DNA of 64,000 nucleotides. It comes from Verrucomicrobia bacterium UBA3624. GTDB lineage: Bacteria > Verrucomicrobiota > Kiritimatiellia > RFP12 > UBA1067. Each line of letters starts with the position of its first letter. The stretch's first letter is position 1. Location: the NCBI GenBank assembly GCA_002373695.1, contig DFLH01000001.1, positions 114 through 64,113 of the forward strand. Reading direction: 5' to 3'. This document shows positions 187 to 63,730 of the stretch, one piece after another. The position numbers and the translations under genes are program-made. A model generated the notes under the pieces. The model ran no database searches and was not told the origin of the DNA. It saw only the letters and a program-made list of their open reading frames with translations.

Positions 187-196
187 GGGGGGGGGG
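187..196 (+). repeat. Homopolymeric G10 tract in the upstream region of the first gene
   Basis: Read directly: ccggttGGGGGGGGGGaagaaaag. It lies 11 nt upstream of a TTGACG hexamer (208-213). Confidence 0.9.
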
Positions 197-328: not shown

Positions 329-1519
329 ATGAAAAAGAACGTGATGCGGAAGTGTGGATGGGTGGCGGCCGTTGCGGCGGTGTGCTCGTCGTCGTGCGTT
401 GCCGTGGCGGCGGAGGCGACGCCGCTGGGCGTGCTTGACCCGGAGGACGCGACGGCGTATCTCACAGCTGGCGCGCAGATATTCAAGGGCGATCTCGTGA
501 AGCAGGGAAATGGCACGACCACGCTTTCGCTGGCGGACGTCCATACGGCCGGGGGACGGATCGTAGTGGCGGACGGTACGCTTGCCGTTTCTGGAGCTAC
601 GGCGGCGAACGATCCGGGGAAGCCATGGGGCGTCCTGTCGAACGCCGTCGTCTGGCTCGATGCATCTATGCCGGAAACGATCGGTTTCGTCGAAGGCTCG
701 TCCGTGAACGTGAGCGAGTGGCGCGACGTGCGCGAGACGGGTACCGGTTCCGCTTCCAGCCCGTACCTCTACCGCCGTGCCGTGGCATACACCAATATCG
801 GGCACTCTGCCACCTACGCGCCCGATCCGGCAGGCTGGTTCCCGGAATACGTTCCGGCGAACGGCGGCGAGAACGCGTACGTGGACTTCGGCCAGTATTC
901 GAGCGGCCGAATGGTACGGTTCCTTGACATATCCGGCAATGTGAGCGCGATATCAAACATGCGCCATGCGTTCGTGGTCTTAGGCACGCATGACGGCCAC
1001 TACGGTTTTCTGTTCAATCCAGGTTCCGGGAACGCCATATTCGTGCCGCAGTCGTATGGCAATCTCGTCAACTGCACCCCTGGCAAGTTCATCCAGCAGG
1101 CAGGAGGCTGGAGCGTGCTGTTGACGGGCGTGTTTCGCGTGGACGGAAAGGCCGTGGATCCGGTGAACGAGGCGGGACCTAATGGCGGATACCAGCTGCT
1201 GGACATTGCAGCCGGAAAGGACGGCTGGAATCCTGTCGGCTTGTTTTCCCACGACACCATCGCCAGCCAGGCGAACGGATATCGACAAGGTGGCGGACGA
1301 CTCTGCGAGGCGATTCTTTTCGACAAGCCGCTCGAGGAGAGGGACAGGCTGAAAATCGAAGCGTATCTCCGGTGGAAGTGGTTTGGGGCTGAAGTGGCCG
1401 CGCCGACATGCTTCGTGAACAAGGATGCAACGCTTGTAATCGACAATTCAAGGGGGGGGGTACAAAGATCTGACGGTTATCGGCAACGGTCCGGTAACGC
1501 TCGAAGCCGGAACGCTTGA
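329..1519 (+). CDS. Secreted LamG-like domain protein; N-terminal fragment of a gene interrupted at a G9 tract
   Basis: ATG 329 is preceded by AAAGGA. Signal peptide: MKKNVMRKCGWVAAVAAVCSSSCVAVAAEA. LamG-type domain ending: LCEAILFDKPLEERDRLKIEAYLRWKWFG. The frame terminates at 1519, shortly after the G9 tract. Confidence 0.75.
   Translation: MKKNVMRKCGWVAAVAAVCSSSCVAVAAEATPLGVLDPEDATAYLTAGAQIFKGDLVKQGNGTTTLSLADVHTAGGRIVVADGTLAVSGATAANDPGKPWGVLSNAVVWLDASMPETIGFVEGSSVNVSEWRDVRETGTGSASSPYLYRRAVAYTNIGHSATYAPDPAGWFPEYVPANGGENAYVDFGQYSSGRMVRFLDISGNVSAISNMRHAFVVLGTHDGHYGFLFNPGSGNAIFVPQSYGNLVNCTPGKFIQQAGGWSVLLTGVFRVDGKAVDPVNEAGPNGGYQLLDIAAGKDGWNPVGLFSHDTIASQANGYRQGGGRLCEAILFDKPLEERDRLKIEAYLRWKWFGAEVAAPTCFVNKDATLVIDNSRGGVQRSDGYRQRSGNARSRNA
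1452..1460 (+). repeat. Intragenic homopolymeric G9 tract at a frameshift point
   Basis: Read directly: aattcaaGGGGGGGGGtacaaag. The reading frame of ORF 254-1519 and that of ORF 1533-3575 meet here. Confidence 0.9.
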
Positions 1520-1532
1520 CACTGCCGATCCG

Positions 1533-3575
1533 GTGGCGCTGACGGTGGCGGAGGGTACGACATACAACGCCATGACAGGCGGGGTGGAACGCGTGTCCGG
1601 CGGCGGTTCTTCGTTTGTAAAGACAGGTGATGGCGAGATGGTGGTGCAGAAGGTTTCTGACGGCCTCGTCAAGATCGATGTGCGGGACGGCGTCTTGCGT
1701 CTGCGGCAGGACATGATTTCTCCGTTCTCCGTTCCCGCCAATCTGTGCGGTTACATCGAGGATCCGTCGTTCGAGGCGTTTTCGGACACGACTGTCCCGA
1801 GTCCCGGTCTTTATCTGGATTCTACAGGCAAGCACGGATGGAAGACGTACGGGAGCCATGAGAAGGGAAACGTCGCGAAATGGCAGACAGGCGGCGGTTA
1901 CTTCAACATGGCGGGAATACCGTATCCCGACGGGATCTATGTGGGCGTGTTGCATATCCGCGGTGGCTTGCAGACGACGGTGACGCTTCCGGCGGATGGC
2001 GTCTACAGGCTGTCCTACTGGGTGGCACAACGTCCAAACTATAAAGGGCACGAGCATCGCGTCCTGATCGACGGCATGCCCGTTGCGGAGGTCAAGGCGT
2101 GGGATTCGTCGTGCAACTGGCATCTCGTGTCGTTTCGCCTGCCTCGACTTGCCGCCGGCGAACATACGCTGGTCTTGGCAAGCGACGACAACAACAGCAC
2201 GGCGACGCGCACGGTCGATTTCTCCGTCACGGACAATATAATGTCCACTGGCAATCTCGTAGCACTTGTCGACGACTTCCACGTGGACTGGATAGAGCCG
2301 GGGGATGGGCAGGTGGCAATCAGCAACGCGAGTTTCGAGGTGACTTCGTTCAGTGCGCGTGGCTACGAAAAGAACCCGGAAGACCTGGGCGGATGGGTGC
2401 TGGGGCCTGTGGACGAGACTAACTATGTCGTCCTTGAGCAGACATGGAACGGGCGGCCTACATTGCATCCGGCATCGGACGGATGCCGTATCCTGAATCT
2501 TGTCAACCAGGTGCATGTCGGGCAGGACGTGACATTCCCTAAGGCCGGGACTTATACCTTGACGCTGGTGGCGGGTTCCGCCGCAGGGAACGATATCGCA
2601 AGCTATCCAGGCAAACTCCGGTTCATGCTGGGCGAGACGGAGATCGGCGCGCTTGAACTCCAGACGAACGGCAAAGCATCGATCATGAAGACGTTCAACC
2701 TCCAGTTTGCCGTGCCGGAGGCCAACTACACTGCCAGGCTTTACATTGCGAACATCAGAGGCGGATCCATCGTTTCCGTAGACGACATCAGGATATCTGC
2801 ATTCGAACCGGGAGTGAATGTGGTTGCCGAAAACTCGTTTGCCTCTACGGGATGGAGCGTGTACGAACCGGAATCGGACATTCATGACGGATCGGGGAAA
2901 GTAGAATGGTTGCCACAGGCGCTTTCCGATGTCGCCTGGGGTCCTGTGACATATGGAGAAGACGGCAACCGTGCCGGAATCCGCAACAACGCCTCGATCT
3001 GGCGCACGGTGGCGTTTCCTGCCGCCGGGACGTACCGGCTGTCCGTCGCGTCCATCGGGCGCTTCTACCGCTACAACGACTCGCATCTGACCGATCCCGG
3101 CATTCTGACGCGTTACAGCGGCAACGCGTTCAACGCCTGGGTGGCGAAGGGCGGCGTTACGAACGTGGTCGGCACGTTCGGCGTGGACGACCGCGAAAGG
3201 TTCGTGACGCACCGGTTCCTGTTCGAGCTGCCGGAGGGCGGCAACTGGGAGGTGGGCTTCAGCGGGCTGAAGGAGTCGGAGCACAAGGTTGCCGGGAGCA
3301 ATACCTGGTACAGCAACGGCGGCGTGCTGGACGGCCTGGTGATCGAAAAGGTGACGGCGGCGGCGAAACCGGGCGTTCCGGAGACGGTGGAGATCGACGT
3401 GGCCGAGAGGGCCGTGCTGGCGCTTGACTATCTGGGGACGAACAAGGTTGCCGCCGTGCGCTATGCGGGGCGGAACTATTCCGGGGAAATCAATGCGGTC
3501 ACATGCCCGGCGTTTATCACCGGCGCGGGGGTGTTGTACGTGCAGCCGAAGGGCACGGTGCTAATGTTCCGCTAA
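1533..3575 (+). CDS. C-terminal fragment of the same surface-protein gene: beta-strand repeat region plus three CBM/jelly-roll-like modules
   Basis: This frame is open upstream back to the G9 tract (YKDLTVIGNGPVTLEAGTLDTADPVALTVAEG...). Three modules each start with a P-A-(D/G)-G-x-Y-x-L motif (LPADGVYRLSYW, FPKAGTYTLTLV, FPAAGTYRLSVA). The first two end with VDDF/VDDI. The coordinates follow the GTG start in the ORF track. Confidence 0.75.
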   Translation: MALTVAEGTTYNAMTGGVERVSGGGSSFVKTGDGEMVVQKVSDGLVKIDVRDGVLRLRQDMISPFSVPANLCGYIEDPSFEAFSDTTVPSPGLYLDSTGKHGWKTYGSHEKGNVAKWQTGGGYFNMAGIPYPDGIYVGVLHIRGGLQTTVTLPADGVYRLSYWVAQRPNYKGHEHRVLIDGMPVAEVKAWDSSCNWHLVSFRLPRLAAGEHTLVLASDDNNSTATRTVDFSVTDNIMSTGNLVALVDDFHVDWIEPGDGQVAISNASFEVTSFSARGYEKNPEDLGGWVLGPVDETNYVVLEQTWNGRPTLHPASDGCRILNLVNQVHVGQDVTFPKAGTYTLTLVAGSAAGNDIASYPGKLRFMLGETEIGALELQTNGKASIMKTFNLQFAVPEANYTARLYIANIRGGSIVSVDDIRISAFEPGVNVVAENSFASTGWSVYEPESDIHDGSGKVEWLPQALSDVAWGPVTYGEDGNRAGIRNNASIWRTVAFPAAGTYRLSVASIGRFYRYNDSHLTDPGILTRYSGNAFNAWVAKGGVTNVVGTFGVDDRERFVTHRFLFELPEGGNWEVGFSGLKESEHKVAGSNTWYSNGGVLDGLVIEKVTAAAKPGVPETVEIDVAERAVLALDYLGTNKVAAVRYAGRNYSGEINAVTCPAFITGAGVLYVQPKGTVLMFR

Positions 3576-7253: not shown

Positions 7254-9404
7254 ATGAAAAAAGAGACAATGTCCTTCAAGGCGGGCCGCCTTTTTCCCGT
7301 CTGCCTTTTGATGGCGGCGAGCGCTTCGGCCGCGATGATGGCGTCAAACTCCTACTACCGGGTGGAATGCGAGACTGTCGACGGCGTCACGCGGCTGGCG
7401 CATCTCGTGAAGGTGCAGAAGGTCGGCGACGTATCAGTGCCGGGCACGTGGACCGTGGATGGCGGCTCCGGCGCCGTCGCATTCGAGAACGGGCGCATCG
7501 TCGTGAAGGGGAAGATCGCGTTCGACGCGGGCGGCGCGGCGTTTGAGCTGACGGGACGCGGCGTGACGTTTGGCGACGGGGCAGGCCGCTGGCAGATCGG
7601 GCTCGACGGCAAGCGGACGAACGTGACGAAGAACGGTTTCACGCTGGAGCCGCACCCGAACACGCCCGGCGGCGTGACGTGGCTCGACTTCACGTGGCAG
7701 AGCGTGCCGCCCGCGCTCGATCCCGCGCAGCTCGCGATCAACCGGGGGCGCCGGCTCAAGTTCATGCATCCTCTCCCGCGCCTGCGGAACGGCCCCGTGC
7801 AGTGCAGCGTGAACAACAATCCCGAACTCGCCGTGCCGGGCGTGCTGACGGCGCAGGGAAAGGACATCGGCTTCTTCATGAAGACGCTGCGCGACGTGGT
7901 GGCGGCGAACCGGCGGCTCGTCTTCCTGGACGGCAAGGCGATCGTCTGCAACCACAACTGGATCCGCGACCACGCGCACCAGATGAAGGGCTGGTGCCAC
8001 TGGGAGCGCGACTGCCTTTCATTCCTCCAGCTGATCATCGACACGCAGCGGGCGGACGGCATGTTCTACGAGCTCGTCAAGCAGCTGGACGACGGACACT
8101 GGACGATGGTGGACGACACGAGCCGCATGCTGTTCCCCGAGGACAACCTGGCGCTCGCACGTCTCGACCTGGAGGCGGACGTGGAGTACGTGACGGTCGA
8201 GGCCGCGCACCTCTACTGGCGGATGACGGGCGACGACCGGTGGATGGCATCCGTGCTGCCCAAGCTTGAGAAGGCCATCGACTGGCAGACGAGCGATCCG
8301 CGGCACTGGAACGCGGAATACGGCCTCTGCATACGTCCGTTCACGATCGACACGTGGGACTTCGTGCCTATGGCCTCCACGGGGCCGGACCGCCGCATCC
8401 ACCCGTGGGAGCCGATGCCCGCCTTCCACGGCGACAACACGGGCGTGTGGCAGGCGATGCACCAGCTCGCCGCGATGAACGAACGCCTGGGGATCGCCGA
8501 CCGGGCGGCGTCCTGGCGTCGGCGCGCGAACACTCTCAAGGCGAACATCTTCAAGCACCTCTGGAACGGCAGGTTCTTCATCCACCAGAAGTTCCTCGGT
8601 ACGGACAAGGGCATCGACGACAAGGAGGGCGAACGACTGTCGCTTTCGGACGCCTACGCGCTCAACCGGGGCATCCTCACGCTCGGGCAGAAGCGGTCGG
8701 TTGTAGAGGAATACCTGCGGCGGCGCACGACCACGGGCGCGTTCGCCGAATGGTTTACGGTCGATCCGCCGTACGAGCCGACGTTCGGTTCGCACAAGGC
8801 CGGCACCTACGTGAACGGGGCGATCTCGCCGTTCACGGCGGGCGAGCTCGCGAAGGGCGCGTTCGGGTGCGGCTACGAGGCGTACGGCTGGGACATCCTC
8901 CAGCGGTTCATGAAGATGGTGGAGAAGGACGGCGCCGTCTACTTCCTCTACAATCCCAAGGGGGGCAATTCCACTACGGCGTATCTTGGGCCGAGCGCCT
9001 GGGGTGCTGCCGCGCTCCTGAGCGCTGTGGACGAGGGACTCGCCGGCATCGTCAACGCTGGCTTCGGCTACGACGAGATCGCATTCTCCCCGCGCTGGCC
9101 CGTGACGCCGTACCGCGAGCTGCGCTACATGACGGGCTACGAGAGCGTCGGGCGCTACGTGGGTTGCCGGTACGTCCAGACGGACGAAGGGTTCCGCTAC
9201 CATCTGCGCAGTCCGGCGAAGAAGATCAAGGCGCATCTGCTCGTGCCCATCGGCAAGACGCCGAAAGTCCTGCTTGTAAACGGCACAGAGACACCCTTCG
9301 CGCTTTCAACAGTCGGCGAATCTCGGTACGTGGACGTTTTCGTGTACGTTGACGCTGTCGTTGCACGACGGGACGGACCGGTCGATTTTGAGGTGTTGTA
9401 CTGA
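7254..9404 (+). CDS. Secreted glycoside-hydrolase-like protein (probable (alpha/alpha)6 fold); paralog of 12001-13776 with an extra N-terminal domain
   Basis: The ATG at 7254 gives MKKETMSFKAGRLFPVCLLMAASASAAMMA. The protein shares long blocks with the paralog: NWIRDHAHQMKGWCHWERD, TQRADGMFYELVKQLDD, YVNGAISPFTAGELAKGAF and PSAWGAAALLSAVDEGLAG. Confidence 0.6.
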   Translation: MKKETMSFKAGRLFPVCLLMAASASAAMMASNSYYRVECETVDGVTRLAHLVKVQKVGDVSVPGTWTVDGGSGAVAFENGRIVVKGKIAFDAGGAAFELTGRGVTFGDGAGRWQIGLDGKRTNVTKNGFTLEPHPNTPGGVTWLDFTWQSVPPALDPAQLAINRGRRLKFMHPLPRLRNGPVQCSVNNNPELAVPGVLTAQGKDIGFFMKTLRDVVAANRRLVFLDGKAIVCNHNWIRDHAHQMKGWCHWERDCLSFLQLIIDTQRADGMFYELVKQLDDGHWTMVDDTSRMLFPEDNLALARLDLEADVEYVTVEAAHLYWRMTGDDRWMASVLPKLEKAIDWQTSDPRHWNAEYGLCIRPFTIDTWDFVPMASTGPDRRIHPWEPMPAFHGDNTGVWQAMHQLAAMNERLGIADRAASWRRRANTLKANIFKHLWNGRFFIHQKFLGTDKGIDDKEGERLSLSDAYALNRGILTLGQKRSVVEEYLRRRTTTGAFAEWFTVDPPYEPTFGSHKAGTYVNGAISPFTAGELAKGAFGCGYEAYGWDILQRFMKMVEKDGAVYFLYNPKGGNSTTAYLGPSAWGAAALLSAVDEGLAGIVNAGFGYDEIAFSPRWPVTPYRELRYMTGYESVGRYVGCRYVQTDEGFRYHLRSPAKKIKAHLLVPIGKTPKVLLVNGTETPFALSTVGESRYVDVFVYVDAVVARRDGPVDFEVLY

Positions 9405-13776: not shown

Positions 13777-13789
13777 TATTTGGTATAAT
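13761..13789 (+). promoter_or_regulatory. Sigma70-type promoter for prs (TTGCAT-17 bp-TATAAT with an extended -10 TG)
   Basis: TTGCAT at 13761-13766 and TGGTATAAT at 13781-13789. Hexamer spacing is 17 bp. It lies 60 nt upstream of the prs ATG. Confidence 0.5.
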
Positions 13790-30349: not shown

Positions 30350-30393
30350 GCGGACGATTATAGCACATGCGGACGCGCGTTGGCAACCAAATG

Positions 30394-30402
30394 TGGTATA
30401 AT
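30394..30402 (+). promoter_or_regulatory. Extended -10 element TGGTATAAT located 7 nt upstream of ATG 30410 (predicted leaderless transcript)
   Basis: Read directly: atgTGGTATAATgtcgcgcATG. There is no Shine-Dalgarno sequence. Confidence 0.45.
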
Positions 30403-36918: not shown

Positions 36919-36948
36919 TTGACATAATGCGCAGGGGGGGGGTATAAT
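36919..36948 (+). promoter_or_regulatory. Consensus sigma70 promoter TTGACA-18 bp-TATAAT whose spacer contains a G9 tract (36934-36942)
   Basis: Read directly: TTGACAtaatgcgcaGGGGGGGGGTATAAT. It lies 36 nt upstream of ATG 36985. Confidence 0.7.
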
Positions 36949-36984
36949 CGTGTAAACTTTAACTTACACGAAGGACTCCATACC

Positions 36985-39615
36985 ATGCGCCTTGTATTTG
37001 CTGTTGCGGTTTCCGCCGCCATGCTTGCGACGACCGGTCATGCCGCAGGCCTCTCTGCCAGCCACTACGTCCAGGACGGGCTGGTCGCGCTCTTCGATGC
37101 CGAAGACAACGAAGGGACGGGAACGCACAATTCCTCCGCCTCTCAATGGAAGGATCTGAAGGGATCGGCGTATGTAAATTGTGTCGCCGACAGCATCTGG
37201 TCGTCGCGCTACTTCTGCAGTCCCACCAACCAGAACTACATAAAGGATATGCCGACGTTAGATCGCAACTCGATTACGGTCGAGGCTGCGTTCGACATGA
37301 TTTCCCACGCCACTAAAAATTACGCTTGTATCGTCCACGGCGGCGAATATTTCAAGTTTTTCTATAACGACCCTGATGCCACCGGTGTCGTCGGATACAT
37401 GTGCCCCGTCGGCGGTATATCCAATGTCGATGGTTCCGGCTACAAATGGGTCAAGACGGCAAGCGGTTTCAGTTCTGGCACGGTGTCCTTCTTTTCCGGC
37501 AGCGATGGTTATGGCGTGCGCGCCGACGGCATGGCAACGGGAAGCCCGTCGGATTACCATGTGGCCATCGCCAACTATACGCTCTCCGCCAACGCCTGGT
37601 CGCTCAACCAGAACGAGTTCGCGGGGAACTACTATTGCGTACGCTGGTACGACCGGGCCTTGAGCGACGACGAGATGCTGGCGAACGCGTTTATCGACAA
37701 ATTGCGTTTCAGGTCGTACATGCTTGCAGGGGACGGTAGCGAAGCCGACTGGAGCGCTGTCGCGTGGGAGGCGCCGTATGATGCGACGGCGTCCGCGCCG
37801 TCGACGGACACCAACGAGTTCGTGCGGATTGCAAATGCGGAGGTGAACGTGGCCGCTTCCGACAACGTGGGGCTGGCGGGGCTCTCCCTCGAAGACGGAG
37901 CCGTGCTGGACATCGCCGATGGAGCGGTTGTTTCCGTTAAGGTGCTTTATGTCGAAGGCGTCGAGATCGAAAGGGGCATCTACTCCGGCGACGAGACGAA
38001 GGGCAGGAAGGTTTCGTGGCTTAACGGTTCCGGCGTACTGAAGGTGGCAGGAGGAAAGGACGTCGACGATTTCCCGGAGACGTATCTCCTTCCCGGCGAG
38101 GACGGATGGTTTCAGTTCGGTACGCAAAGCGGCAGTTACGGGAGCGTAGACACCTACGCCGGCGCGAAGAGGGAATATTTCATAGGCGAACATGTCGATT
38201 GGAGGAAATGCAGTTTCCCCGCAGGAGGAAACAACAAACTTCGCCTTGCAGGCTATTCGCTGATTGGTGCAATTCCGTCCGGCACCTTTTCGGTGGTGGA
38301 TCTGTCTAAGGCCACGATAGTCCAGCTCTATGAACCGCAAATGTTCGAGGATGGAACGCAGGCGACCGTTCCTTACGGCGTCATTCTGCGGTATCATCCT
38401 GGAACCTGGGAGAAGGACGAATCGACTGGACGATACTACCGCATGGGCTCTTCGAGCGATCCATATGCGGGCGACATCTATCTGAACGGGGCCGCCGCAG
38501 TGCTTCGCGTTTCGGTGGACAACGGACTCAAGGAAGTACAGTTCTCCGGGCTGTTCAGCGGTACCGGCAAACTGCAGTTCAGCGCATGGGGGAACCGGGC
38601 GAGGTTCTCCGGCGGATTCGCGCTGAACAACTACATCGGGTCGTTTCAGCACGGATCGCTGGTCTGGCTGGATACGACGATGGTCACAAGCCGGCTGGAA
38701 GGTGTCACGTTCGCCGGGTGCAACGATTCCTATGTCAACGACCAGGCGTCCGGCTATCGCGTGAACGGGCTGTATTTCGGCAAGAACGGCAGTGAAGAGA
38801 CGGCTGACCACGAACTGTACTTGAAATATGTCAACGGCACGGCAAAGGTCGGAATCAGCACCACTACCGGCATACGGCTCCGTTCTGGCGCGGTGCTTGG
38901 CATCTGGGGCGGAAATACCGTACATGCAGGATATATGACGGCAAACGGTTCAGTCCATGTCATTGCGCGTCCGCAGGAATTGAAGTCCACATTCAATGGC
39001 TGGCATTTCAAGGCCGTCGGCGCCGGAGATGGCAACTTCGTGGTGGACGAGGTTCGTGTTTCCAGCAAGCTTTACATGTCAGAACACGTAAACATGACGG
39101 CAGGAAATGTGCTGGCTAATGCGTGCTTCGATTATACGTTTGCTACAAACGAGACGACCGTATCGTTCTTGGATATCACCAACGCATGCGATTCGACCGC
39201 GACGGTGGTCGCTAACGACATTGCATCTCTGCCGGCGCGGCTTTCGGGATTCACGGGAACGGTCAGCCTTTCAAGTGCGGCCACGAAGTCCTACACGATG
39301 CCGGTCGACATGACGCAGGGGACGGACATCCTGTACAACACGGTAGGGTGCATTGGTTCCGGTGCGCTTGCCGGAGCGCCTGCGGCGGGTGCGATAGATG
39401 CGACGTTCCCGACGGACTCCGAGCCGGTCAAGGGCGACTATTCGCTTGCGCGTTTCACCTCCGGCGGCGAAGCCTTGGCCGGTTGGACGGTGACGTTGAA
39501 CGGTCAGGCGTTGACGGATGTCCAGGTGGGTGGCATGATGGTGTCCGTGGTGAAGGATTCCACGGGAATTTGGCTGAAGGTGCGGGAAACGGGAATGACG
39601 TTCCTGTTGAGGTAG
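36985..39615 (+). CDS. Secreted LamG-domain protein with a long beta-rich C-terminal region
   Basis: Signal peptide: MRLVFAVAVSAAMLATTGHAAG. LamG-type ending: YYCVRWYDRALSDDEMLANAFIDKL. The C-terminal tail is ETGMTFLLR. Confidence 0.75.
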   Translation: MRLVFAVAVSAAMLATTGHAAGLSASHYVQDGLVALFDAEDNEGTGTHNSSASQWKDLKGSAYVNCVADSIWSSRYFCSPTNQNYIKDMPTLDRNSITVEAAFDMISHATKNYACIVHGGEYFKFFYNDPDATGVVGYMCPVGGISNVDGSGYKWVKTASGFSSGTVSFFSGSDGYGVRADGMATGSPSDYHVAIANYTLSANAWSLNQNEFAGNYYCVRWYDRALSDDEMLANAFIDKLRFRSYMLAGDGSEADWSAVAWEAPYDATASAPSTDTNEFVRIANAEVNVAASDNVGLAGLSLEDGAVLDIADGAVVSVKVLYVEGVEIERGIYSGDETKGRKVSWLNGSGVLKVAGGKDVDDFPETYLLPGEDGWFQFGTQSGSYGSVDTYAGAKREYFIGEHVDWRKCSFPAGGNNKLRLAGYSLIGAIPSGTFSVVDLSKATIVQLYEPQMFEDGTQATVPYGVILRYHPGTWEKDESTGRYYRMGSSSDPYAGDIYLNGAAAVLRVSVDNGLKEVQFSGLFSGTGKLQFSAWGNRARFSGGFALNNYIGSFQHGSLVWLDTTMVTSRLEGVTFAGCNDSYVNDQASGYRVNGLYFGKNGSEETADHELYLKYVNGTAKVGISTTTGIRLRSGAVLGIWGGNTVHAGYMTANGSVHVIARPQELKSTFNGWHFKAVGAGDGNFVVDEVRVSSKLYMSEHVNMTAGNVLANACFDYTFATNETTVSFLDITNACDSTATVVANDIASLPARLSGFTGTVSLSSAATKSYTMPVDMTQGTDILYNTVGCIGSGALAGAPAAGAIDATFPTDSEPVKGDYSLARFTSGGEALAGWTVTLNGQALTDVQVGGMMVSVVKDSTGIWLKVRETGMTFLLR

Positions 39616-39809
39616 GTTGCGGCGGTCGCGGGGCGACCGCCCTACCGGGACGCGGCGGCGGTCGCGGGACGGCAAGTTTGCGGCGGCGGTCGCGCGGGGA
39701 GGCAAGTTTGCGGCGACGGTCGCGCGGGGCGGCAAGTTTGCGGCGGCGGTCGCGCGGGACGCGCGACCCTACCGTGGGCGATTTGGTAGGGGCACGCGTC
39801 CCGCGTGCC
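39611..39809. repeat. Composite GC-rich palindromic/REP-like intergenic region
   Basis: GGTAGG overlaps the TAG stop (39613-39615). It contains the hairpin GCGGTCGC-ggg-GCGACCGC, the word CCCTACC, three 30-bp tandem units, and GGTAGGGGCACGCGTCCCGCGTGCC at 39785-39809. Confidence 0.75.
39671..39760 (+). repeat. Three tandem 30-bp units, GGCAAGTTTGCGGCG(G/A)CGGTCGCGCGGG(GA/GC/AC)
   Basis: The units start at 39671, 39701 and 39731. A partial related unit precedes them at about 39651-39670. Confidence 0.9.
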
Positions 39810-39890
39810 TGCCGTTGTTTTGATATACTACGCGGCGTGCAGACGCGCGTTGCTTGACAGAGCATGGAAAATTAGGCAAGGAGCATTACT

Positions 39891-57800: not shown

Positions 57801-57820
57801 ATTTTTTTGGGGGGGGGGGG
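57801..57820 (+). repeat. T7 run directly followed by a G12 homopolymer
   Basis: Read directly after the tRNA-Gly CCA: TTTTTTTGGGGGGGGGGGGcaggtg. Confidence 0.9.
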
Positions 57821-63701: not shown

Positions 63702-63730
63702 TTGCGGTAGACGCGGAAAAAACCTATAAT
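63702..63730 (+). promoter_or_regulatory. Sigma70-type promoter (TTGCGG-17 bp-TATAAT)
   Basis: TTGCGG at 63702-63707 and TATAAT at 63725-63730. It lies 34 nt upstream of ATG 63765. Confidence 0.45.

Follow-up and report, generated by a model that had tools for sequence, protein, structure and literature searches.

A G9 tract within the spacer of a consensus sigma70-type promoter as a candidate slippage-prone modulator of a predicted surface protein in a rumen Kiritimatiellae bacterium

Results

The 876-aa gene and its promoter region

The window (the whole stretch of 64,000 nucleotides of DNA that was analysed) carries on its plus strand a gene, given in the ORF list at 36985-39615, that encodes a protein of 876 amino acids. 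Its ATG lies 36 nt past the -10 hexamer of a promoter-like element on the same strand (36919-36948), which has the structure TTGACA-TAATGCGCA-GGGGGGGGG-TATAAT. The -35 hexamer TTGACA (36919-36924), recognised in the sequence as well as by the promoter scan, and the -10 hexamer TATAAT (36943-36948) match the consensus exactly. The 18-bp spacer between them (36925-36942) consists of TAATGCGCA followed by GGGGGGGGG, the latter being a G9 homopolymer (36934-36942) that makes up the last nine bases of the spacer, is of a length at which a homopolymer can slip (about 8 nt or more), and is the proposed slippage-prone element. The bases that precede the -10 hexamer are GGG rather than TGn, thus there is no TG extended -10; as both hexamers are consensus, the activity of the promoter should depend, according to general knowledge of sigma70 promoters, on the -35 hexamer and on the spacing of the hexamers.

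Transcription is predicted from the sequence to start at A residues 6-8 nt past the -10 hexamer (36954-36956, plus strand). A start at ~36955 (about 7 nt past the -10) would leave a 30-nt leader, in which a Shine-Dalgarno-like GAAGGA (36970-36975, plus strand) is found 9 nt before the ATG. The leader folds no better than its shuffled versions (z 0.54), consistent with an unstructured RNA that has no regulatory hairpin; the upstream intergenic region likewise folds no better than shuffles (z 0.63), with neither a terminator nor a regulatory hairpin. An Rfam search of the whole window returned two tRNAs only, and no known RNA element in the intergenic region. A perfect 8-nt inverted repeat, TCGTGTAA/TTACACGA (36948-36971), spans the predicted start and touches the Shine-Dalgarno-like sequence; it was discarded as a candidate operator, its occurrence being roughly at chance level by a rough estimate. 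Also discarded was a minus-strand 75-aa ORF that runs across the tract and overlaps the start of the gene in antisense, which looks spurious.

Downstream of the stop codon, GC-rich repeats are followed by a terminator-like hairpin with a 9-bp stem and a T-rich tail (39790-39822, plus strand), and the next gene has its own TGaTATACT element; the 876-aa gene therefore looks like a single-gene unit. The segment between stop and hairpin (39616-39790) contains a 30-nt x 3.6 tandem repeat (39652-39758) and GCGGTCGC/GCGACCGC palindromes, which may be REP-like elements. Elements resembling them, rich in GCGACC, are also seen ahead of a homologue in another locus (L003).

The element at 36919-36948 is the sole site in the 30-45 kb region for which the promoter scan gave a 12/12 sigma70 match, and a perfect match is unique to it in the window as a whole. 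Sites with at most one mismatch at 18-bp spacing number two in the window versus 0.04 expected from dinucleotide shuffles, and a perfect TTGACA-N16-18-TATAAT was found in 0/400 first-order Markov simulations of the window; the 12/12 match is thus far beyond chance. Exact TATAAT occurs 12 times in the window, and seven of these 12 immediately precede ORFs, in short gaps. The window has further promoters, namely TTGCAT-17-TATAAT (-10 at 13784), TTGCGG-17-TATAAT (-10 at 63725), TTGCCA-18-TATAAT on the minus strand (30386-30357) and TTGACC-17-TAAACT, which precedes a tRNA-Ser/Gly pair. At 30357-30402 the minus-strand TTGCCA-18-TATAAT and a plus-strand TGgTATAAT stand back to back as divergent promoters that overlap within 45 bp. 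In relatives, homologues of the 876-aa gene are preceded by TTGACG-18-TATACT, TGaTATGAT or TGaTATAAT. Because of these promoters, in the window and in relatives, a canonical sigma70 architecture with a 17-18 bp spacer is taken to be the norm here. Overall, 36919-36948 is probably a real promoter. The hexamers, the 18-bp spacer and the G9 had been described in the same terms in an earlier note on this DNA, and its claim of a promoter is supported by the position, by the accessory Shine-Dalgarno and terminator-like elements, and by the use of the same promoter type elsewhere in the window.

Neither scan nor folding revealed a terminator-like structure between the upstream stop codon (36789) and the promoter, therefore read-through may add to the expression of the 876-aa gene. 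A low-GC island (35.5-37.5 kb; 44-50% versus 62%) extends from the 3' end of the gene with TSP3 repeats, through the 222-aa gene and the promoter, into the 5' part of the 876-aa gene, and may be acquired or fast-evolving DNA.

The gene product and its relatives

The 876-aa protein has a hydrophobic, signal-peptide-like N-terminus, followed in the predicted layout by a ConA/LamG-like lectin domain, a beta-helix and a C-terminal beta domain. Searches of the protein gave 0 Pfam families at E<=0.1 and 0 NCBIfam families at E<=1. There was no match to the PF13385 Laminin_G_3 profile, which gives no support for placing the protein in the Pfam LamG family; the profile was found, however, in two of 21 relatives (best E 2e-4) and in the distant matches P0044-46. 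The AlphaFold2 model, built with 21 homologues, has a pLDDT of 83.7 and includes a ConA-like beta-sandwich fold. Foldseek aligned about 235-270 columns of the model to trans-sialidase chains (E 1.7e-6), to botulinum toxin receptor-binding regions and to the Emp46p lectin domain; these matches are presumably to the lectin-like domains of those proteins, and we infer, the query ranges being unlisted, that they concern the N-terminal domain of the query. The long beta-helix resembles the autotransporter passengers IgA1 protease, Hap and Hbp at a low TM-score (about 0.2). No autotransporter Pfam domain was found in the protein, nor a C-terminal beta-barrel translocator of the kind that defines a classical (type Va) autotransporter. 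A fair description of the 876-aa product is that of a secreted or surface lectin-like protein, by prediction. Of the designation signal-peptide LamG protein given in the earlier note, the signal-peptide-like N-terminus and the ConA/LamG-like predicted fold stand, while a LamG match in Pfam or NCBIfam does not. Surface or secreted proteins, to which the product is predicted to belong, are the usual target class of phase switches. The large secreted proteins of this locus family share a short C-terminal motif, ...[LIM][FI]R* (TFLLR, VLMFR, TILFR), located in the window at 39601-39615 and 3558-3575 and present also in the loci of the closest homologues (L021-L025); it may be a sorting or anchoring tag.

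A single-protein scan of genome contigs recovered no relative of the gene, whereas an alignment-based scan recovered 13 loci, 0/13 of which carry a promoter tract. Each of the closest homologues (L021-L025, 53-59% identity) follows a paralogue at a distance of 16-45 nt, with neither a promoter of its own nor a tract; more distant homologues have ordinary promoters, again without tracts. As the homologues found in relatives (at most 59% identity) are without tract, they provide no comparative evidence for a switch. Homologues of the upstream 222-aa protein revealed a conserved TSP3 + 214-aa gene pair, downstream of which the relatives have differing, unrelated genes and no tracts.

Source organism and invariance of the promoter tract

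Homologues of the downstream (876-aa) protein come from rumen and gut metagenomes, and those that are named belong to Kiritimatiellae MAGs. The source of the window is an uncultured sheep-rumen Kiritimatiellae bacterium; Kiritimatiellae belong to the PVC group, in agreement with the earlier assignment. Contigs 100% identical to the window are extant in several sheep-rumen data sets: the SHIW14 / SAMN02144231 scaffold, GenBank AUXO01, JGI 3300002641, Logan SRR873603, Logan SRR5322873 and ENA ERZ12302819. The promoter tract is G9 in the window, ERZ12302819, Logan SRR5322873, Logan SRR873603, JGI 3300002641 and AUXO01. These six same-strain assemblies represent at least two sequencing runs and different pipelines, with unique flanks on both sides of the tract. 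HiSeq 2000 instruments use four-colour chemistry, consequently the two-colour 'dark G' artefact does not apply to runs made on them. The sheep-rumen runs of Shi et al. 2014 (SRR873603, AUXO01), from which several of the assemblies derive, are PCR-free Illumina HiSeq 2000 libraries with matching metatranscriptomes, and the public data set comprises deep PCR-free metagenomes of several animals and time points (PMC4158751).

The length change proposed in the earlier note was not seen: the promoter tract is G9 in 6/6 same-strain assemblies, which are consensus sequences of one strain, in which minority length variants are hidden. A variable-gap DNA pattern search of metagenome contigs recovered the same strain only, with G9. 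Two further tracts, an intragenic G9 and a G10 (see below), are also invariant among the same-strain assemblies.

Long G tracts in the window

G nonamers occur in the window as eight matches, equal to four tracts, versus 0.86 expected. The length spectrum of G runs is bimodal: 687 G3, 180 G4, 31 G5, 2 G6, 1 G7 and 0 G8 are followed by G9, G9, G10 and G12. The G6-G7 runs are at 8960, 10009 and 40328. C runs longer than 5 are absent from the window. Up to G8, G runs are strongly counter-selected, and yet there are four of length 9-12. Three of these four are intergenic in a gene-dense window, and in all four G is on the coding strand. In the loci of relatives (about 120 kb) runs of 7 or more are almost absent.

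The longest tract, G12 (57809-57820, plus strand), is situated 8 nt past the 3' end of tRNA-Gly, after a T7 run. It is G13 in ERZ12302819 NODE_230, the sole difference across 11 kb of the same strain; either the tract is truly unstable or its length, in so long a homopolymer, was miscalled. The arrangement at 57802-57820, T7 then G12 directly past the CCA end of tRNA-Gly, lies ~130 nt upstream of an ABC-transporter gene.

Two long runs were observed outside the window. In another Kiritimatiellae MAG (L014, 3589-3597) a C9 directly precedes the ATG of an ORF whose translation begins like a signal peptide (MKKILSLALSVLCLCASS...), in the position expected for the Shine-Dalgarno sequence and ~90 nt from the contig end. 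In a related organism an in-frame G8 (8499-8506) is located inside a 2104-aa LamG/GHL10 gene and is identical in four samples (L017-L020).

A second G9 splits a surface-type gene

The second G9 (1452-1460, plus strand) is inside a coding region and splits a 1081-aa surface-type gene of PATR/beta-helix type (329-3575) into ORFs of 396 aa (329-1519) and 680 aa (1533-3575). The frame is restored by G8 or G11, giving 1081 or 1082 aa, hence the loss of one base or the gain of two is enough for a product that matches the homologues; full-length homologues of 1050-1089 aa cover 100% of the fused 1081-aa protein. In a related strain (L016, 87% DNA identity) the split recurs at the same position and in the same frame, the tract being G10 through an A-to-G substitution. 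Comparison of the two strains gives 97.6% identity for the N-terminal half. The halves downstream of the tract are 78% identical, with dS 0.59 and dN/dS 0.24, and are open in both strains; this part, though divergent, is under purifying selection and evolves like a protein, therefore the split gene is not a decayed pseudogene. A 67%-identical orthologue has at the tract site an interrupted GGAGGAGGGGAC, which encodes Gly-Gly-Gly, and in another orthologue a 20-codon segment around the site is absent; since orthologues have either GGAGGAGGGGAC or no segment, the pure G9 tract is derived. An exact look-up in about 15 billion public proteins found none of the products expected from G6, G7, G10 or G12 at 1452-1460; only the G9 (OFF) product is present among public proteins, the ON length not being seen. 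The 1081-aa gene could be phase-variable, or the site of transcriptional or ribosomal slippage. With four G tracts of 9-12 and one frameshifting 1081-aa gene, the same genome thus contains other repeat-based candidate contingency loci.

The G10 tract (187-196, plus strand) precedes the -10 (277-282) of the split gene by ~80 nt and lies exactly where the homology with the upstream regions of relatives begins. It is followed at 228-282 by a conserved promoter, in which TATAAT (277-282) is accompanied by two GATAGTGC direct repeats spaced ~21 nt apart; this looks like an activator-dependent promoter. To the left of the tract, an 85-nt segment (76-160; L037/L038 1-85) opens with an 11-nt x 3.9 tandem repeat (AATTGTCTCAA) and has a second copy ~218 nt further left. 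Assemblies extending this far terminate in the duplicated region or slightly before it, a sign that a larger repeat may lie past the left end of the window.

Discussion

A proposed promoter of adjustable strength

We propose that 36919-36948 is a genuine sigma70-type promoter, the strength of which is made heritably adjustable by slippage in its G9 spacer, an explanation whose chances of being right or wrong we judge to be about equal. Slipped-strand mispairing would alter the G tract one base at a time. G8 would give the 17-bp spacing and the strongest promoter; the G9 state, with 18 bp, would still work at strong to intermediate level; and with G10 or more, or G7 or fewer, the hexamers would be misaligned and the promoter weak. 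Both the change of length at 36934-36942 in vivo and the response of expression to it are inferred from what is known of sigma70 promoters and of phase variation (PMC7864442). The cell would in this way make more or less of one surface lectin/beta-helix protein, in a manner graded, heritable and reversible, with read-through of the upstream operon perhaps maintaining a minimum level; such a device would be a rheostat and not a strict on/off switch. The expression switch envisaged in the earlier note would accordingly be a modulator and not an on/off device, there being no upstream terminator and read-through being possible. On this view the rumen Kiritimatiellae lineage would have several poly-G contingency loci, the promoter tract among them. 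The context, namely the tract census, the split gene and the G12/G13 difference, favours a slippage switch and raises its prior probability.

The strongest alternative, which we regard as a substantial though lesser possibility, is that the promoter is real and fixed: G9 would be stable in practice, owing for example to efficient mismatch repair, there would be no phase variation, and the 18-bp spacing would be the selected state of a constitutive or conventionally regulated promoter. The invariance of the G9 in 6/6 same-strain assemblies from at least two runs agrees with this, as does that of the other two tracts of 9-10 G; moreover, an 18-bp spacer with consensus hexamers is already functional, and TTGCCA-18-TATAAT also occurs in the window. 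A fixed promoter does not, however, account for a G9 that is placed exactly inside the sole perfect promoter of a genome that otherwise purges G6-8, nor for a sister G9 that frameshifts an otherwise selected gene, nor for the G12/G13 variation at the longest tract. In addition, known phase-variable tracts also look invariant in consensus: in T. pallidum tprL about 81% of a near-clonal isolate is G9 (PMC7864442).

That the hexamers are not operative, and that the gene owes its transcripts mainly to another start or to read-through out of the TSP3-repeat/222-aa operon upstream, so that tract length is irrelevant, is unlikely. The stretch from the upstream stop (36789) to the promoter has no terminator-like structure, and the closest homologues, 16-45 nt behind a paralogue, do without a promoter of their own. 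The 195-nt gap ahead of the 876-aa gene is, however, unlike this operonic arrangement; a 12/12 match is far beyond chance, sigma70-like promoters precede the homologues in other relatives, and the same promoter type is found upstream of other genes in the window.

Still less probable, indeed very doubtful, is the notion that the long G tracts are junctions of acquired or rearranged DNA and not selected switches. It would fit the G10 that stands exactly where upstream homology with relatives starts, the G12 that follows a tRNA 3' end, and the position of the promoter G9 in the low-GC island at 35.5-37.5 kb. Within this island, however, the promoter G9 is in the middle, between two hexamers, and not at a composition boundary, while the intragenic G9 developed in situ at a site that codes for Gly-Gly-Gly; nor are we aware of a mechanism by which poly-G would be left behind as a scar in bacteria. 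Finally, a sequencing or assembly artefact is hardly credible, for although long homopolymers are error-prone and one tract differs between assemblies (G12 versus G13), the same G9 with unique flanks on both sides is found in six assemblies made by different pipelines, the libraries of Shi et al. are PCR-free HiSeq 2000 libraries, and one contig has ~89x coverage.

Returning to the adjustable promoter, we tentatively extend the proposal to the lineage: a 'phasome' in which poly-G tracts that arose in place stochastically tune or switch large lectin/beta-helix surface proteins is conceivable, at somewhat less than even likelihood. As part of the same tentative reading, the tracts would have originated in a Gly-Gly-Gly coding site, in a promoter spacer and, for the others, near promoters or tRNA.

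Biological significance

Repeat-based phase variation has so far been documented almost entirely in host-adapted pathogens, and literature searches for phase variation in Kiritimatiellae or Verrucomicrobia found nothing relevant. Should the proposal be true, it would be the first description of repeat-based phase variation in Kiritimatiellota, in a polysaccharide degrader of the PVC group that is abundant in the rumen and uncultured, and a free-living gut fermenter with a high-GC genome would be seen to use the contingency-locus strategy of pathogens. The benefit might perhaps be against phages, protozoan grazing or shifting glycan substrates, and contingency loci would also shape the repertoires of surface lectins and adhesins in commensal gut ecosystems. 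Annotators would then have reason for caution, since what is called 'frameshifted pseudogenes' in MAGs of this kind may be switches. The mechanism being already known, the gain would be taxonomic and ecological, not conceptual.

Comparison with known systems

Repeats control promoter geometry, and thereby surface structures, in H. influenzae hifA/B, where TA repeats occupy the spacer, and in Mycoplasma hyorhinis vlp, where poly-A is in the spacer. In N. meningitidis opc a poly-C that overlaps the -35 exerts the same repeat-length control of promoter geometry over a surface structure (PMC7864442). The repeat unit or its position in opc, hifA/B and vlp differs from that of the window G9, and all three belong to host-associated pathogens in which switching has been shown experimentally.

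The novelty claimed in the earlier note was too strong. The mechanism is established in N. meningitidis porA and T. pallidum tp0126, in both of which the spacer of -35 and -10 contains a poly-G and has its optimum at 17 bp (PMC7864442). As to novelty for PVC or high-GC bacteria, poly-G frameshift tracts have been described in Chlamydia pmp (PMC3323650), and there are papers on phase variation through homopolymers in M. tuberculosis, a high-GC species.

The pmp genes of Chlamydia, a member of the same superphylum, are similar to the window in that long poly-G tracts are found in beta-helical, autotransporter-type surface genes; frameshifts at these tracts between independent sequencings parallel the 1081-aa gene split at 1452-1460 (PMC3323650). 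In contrast to the promoter-spacer G9, the pmp tracts are intragenic and thus translational, and their authors considered either artefact or slippage (PMC3323650).

In T. pallidum, tp0126 has, like the window, a poly-G in the spacer, and its transcription is best at 17 bp; the tracts of tp0126 and of tprE/G/J/L control putative outer-membrane protein genes (PMC7864442). Several of the tpr genes have the tract just upstream of the transcription start and not in a clean consensus spacer (PMC7864442). These tracts are of 7-11 G with a dominant mode, for which reason the consensus looks invariant; their variation was established by fragment-length analysis, and they were tested in GFP reporters (PMC7864442).

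The design also matches that of porA, a surface protein gene whose promoter has a G tract in the spacer, the length of which determines the hexamer spacing and hence the level of transcription (PMC7864442). The length variation of porA and its effect on expression have been shown by experiment, while for the window tract they are predicted from DNA. The window also differs in its perfect consensus hexamers, in its 18-bp state, and in its host, an uncultured rumen commensal of a different phylum. We therefore consider the window locus a candidate addition to the known poly-G promoter-spacer class of the porA/tp0126 design.
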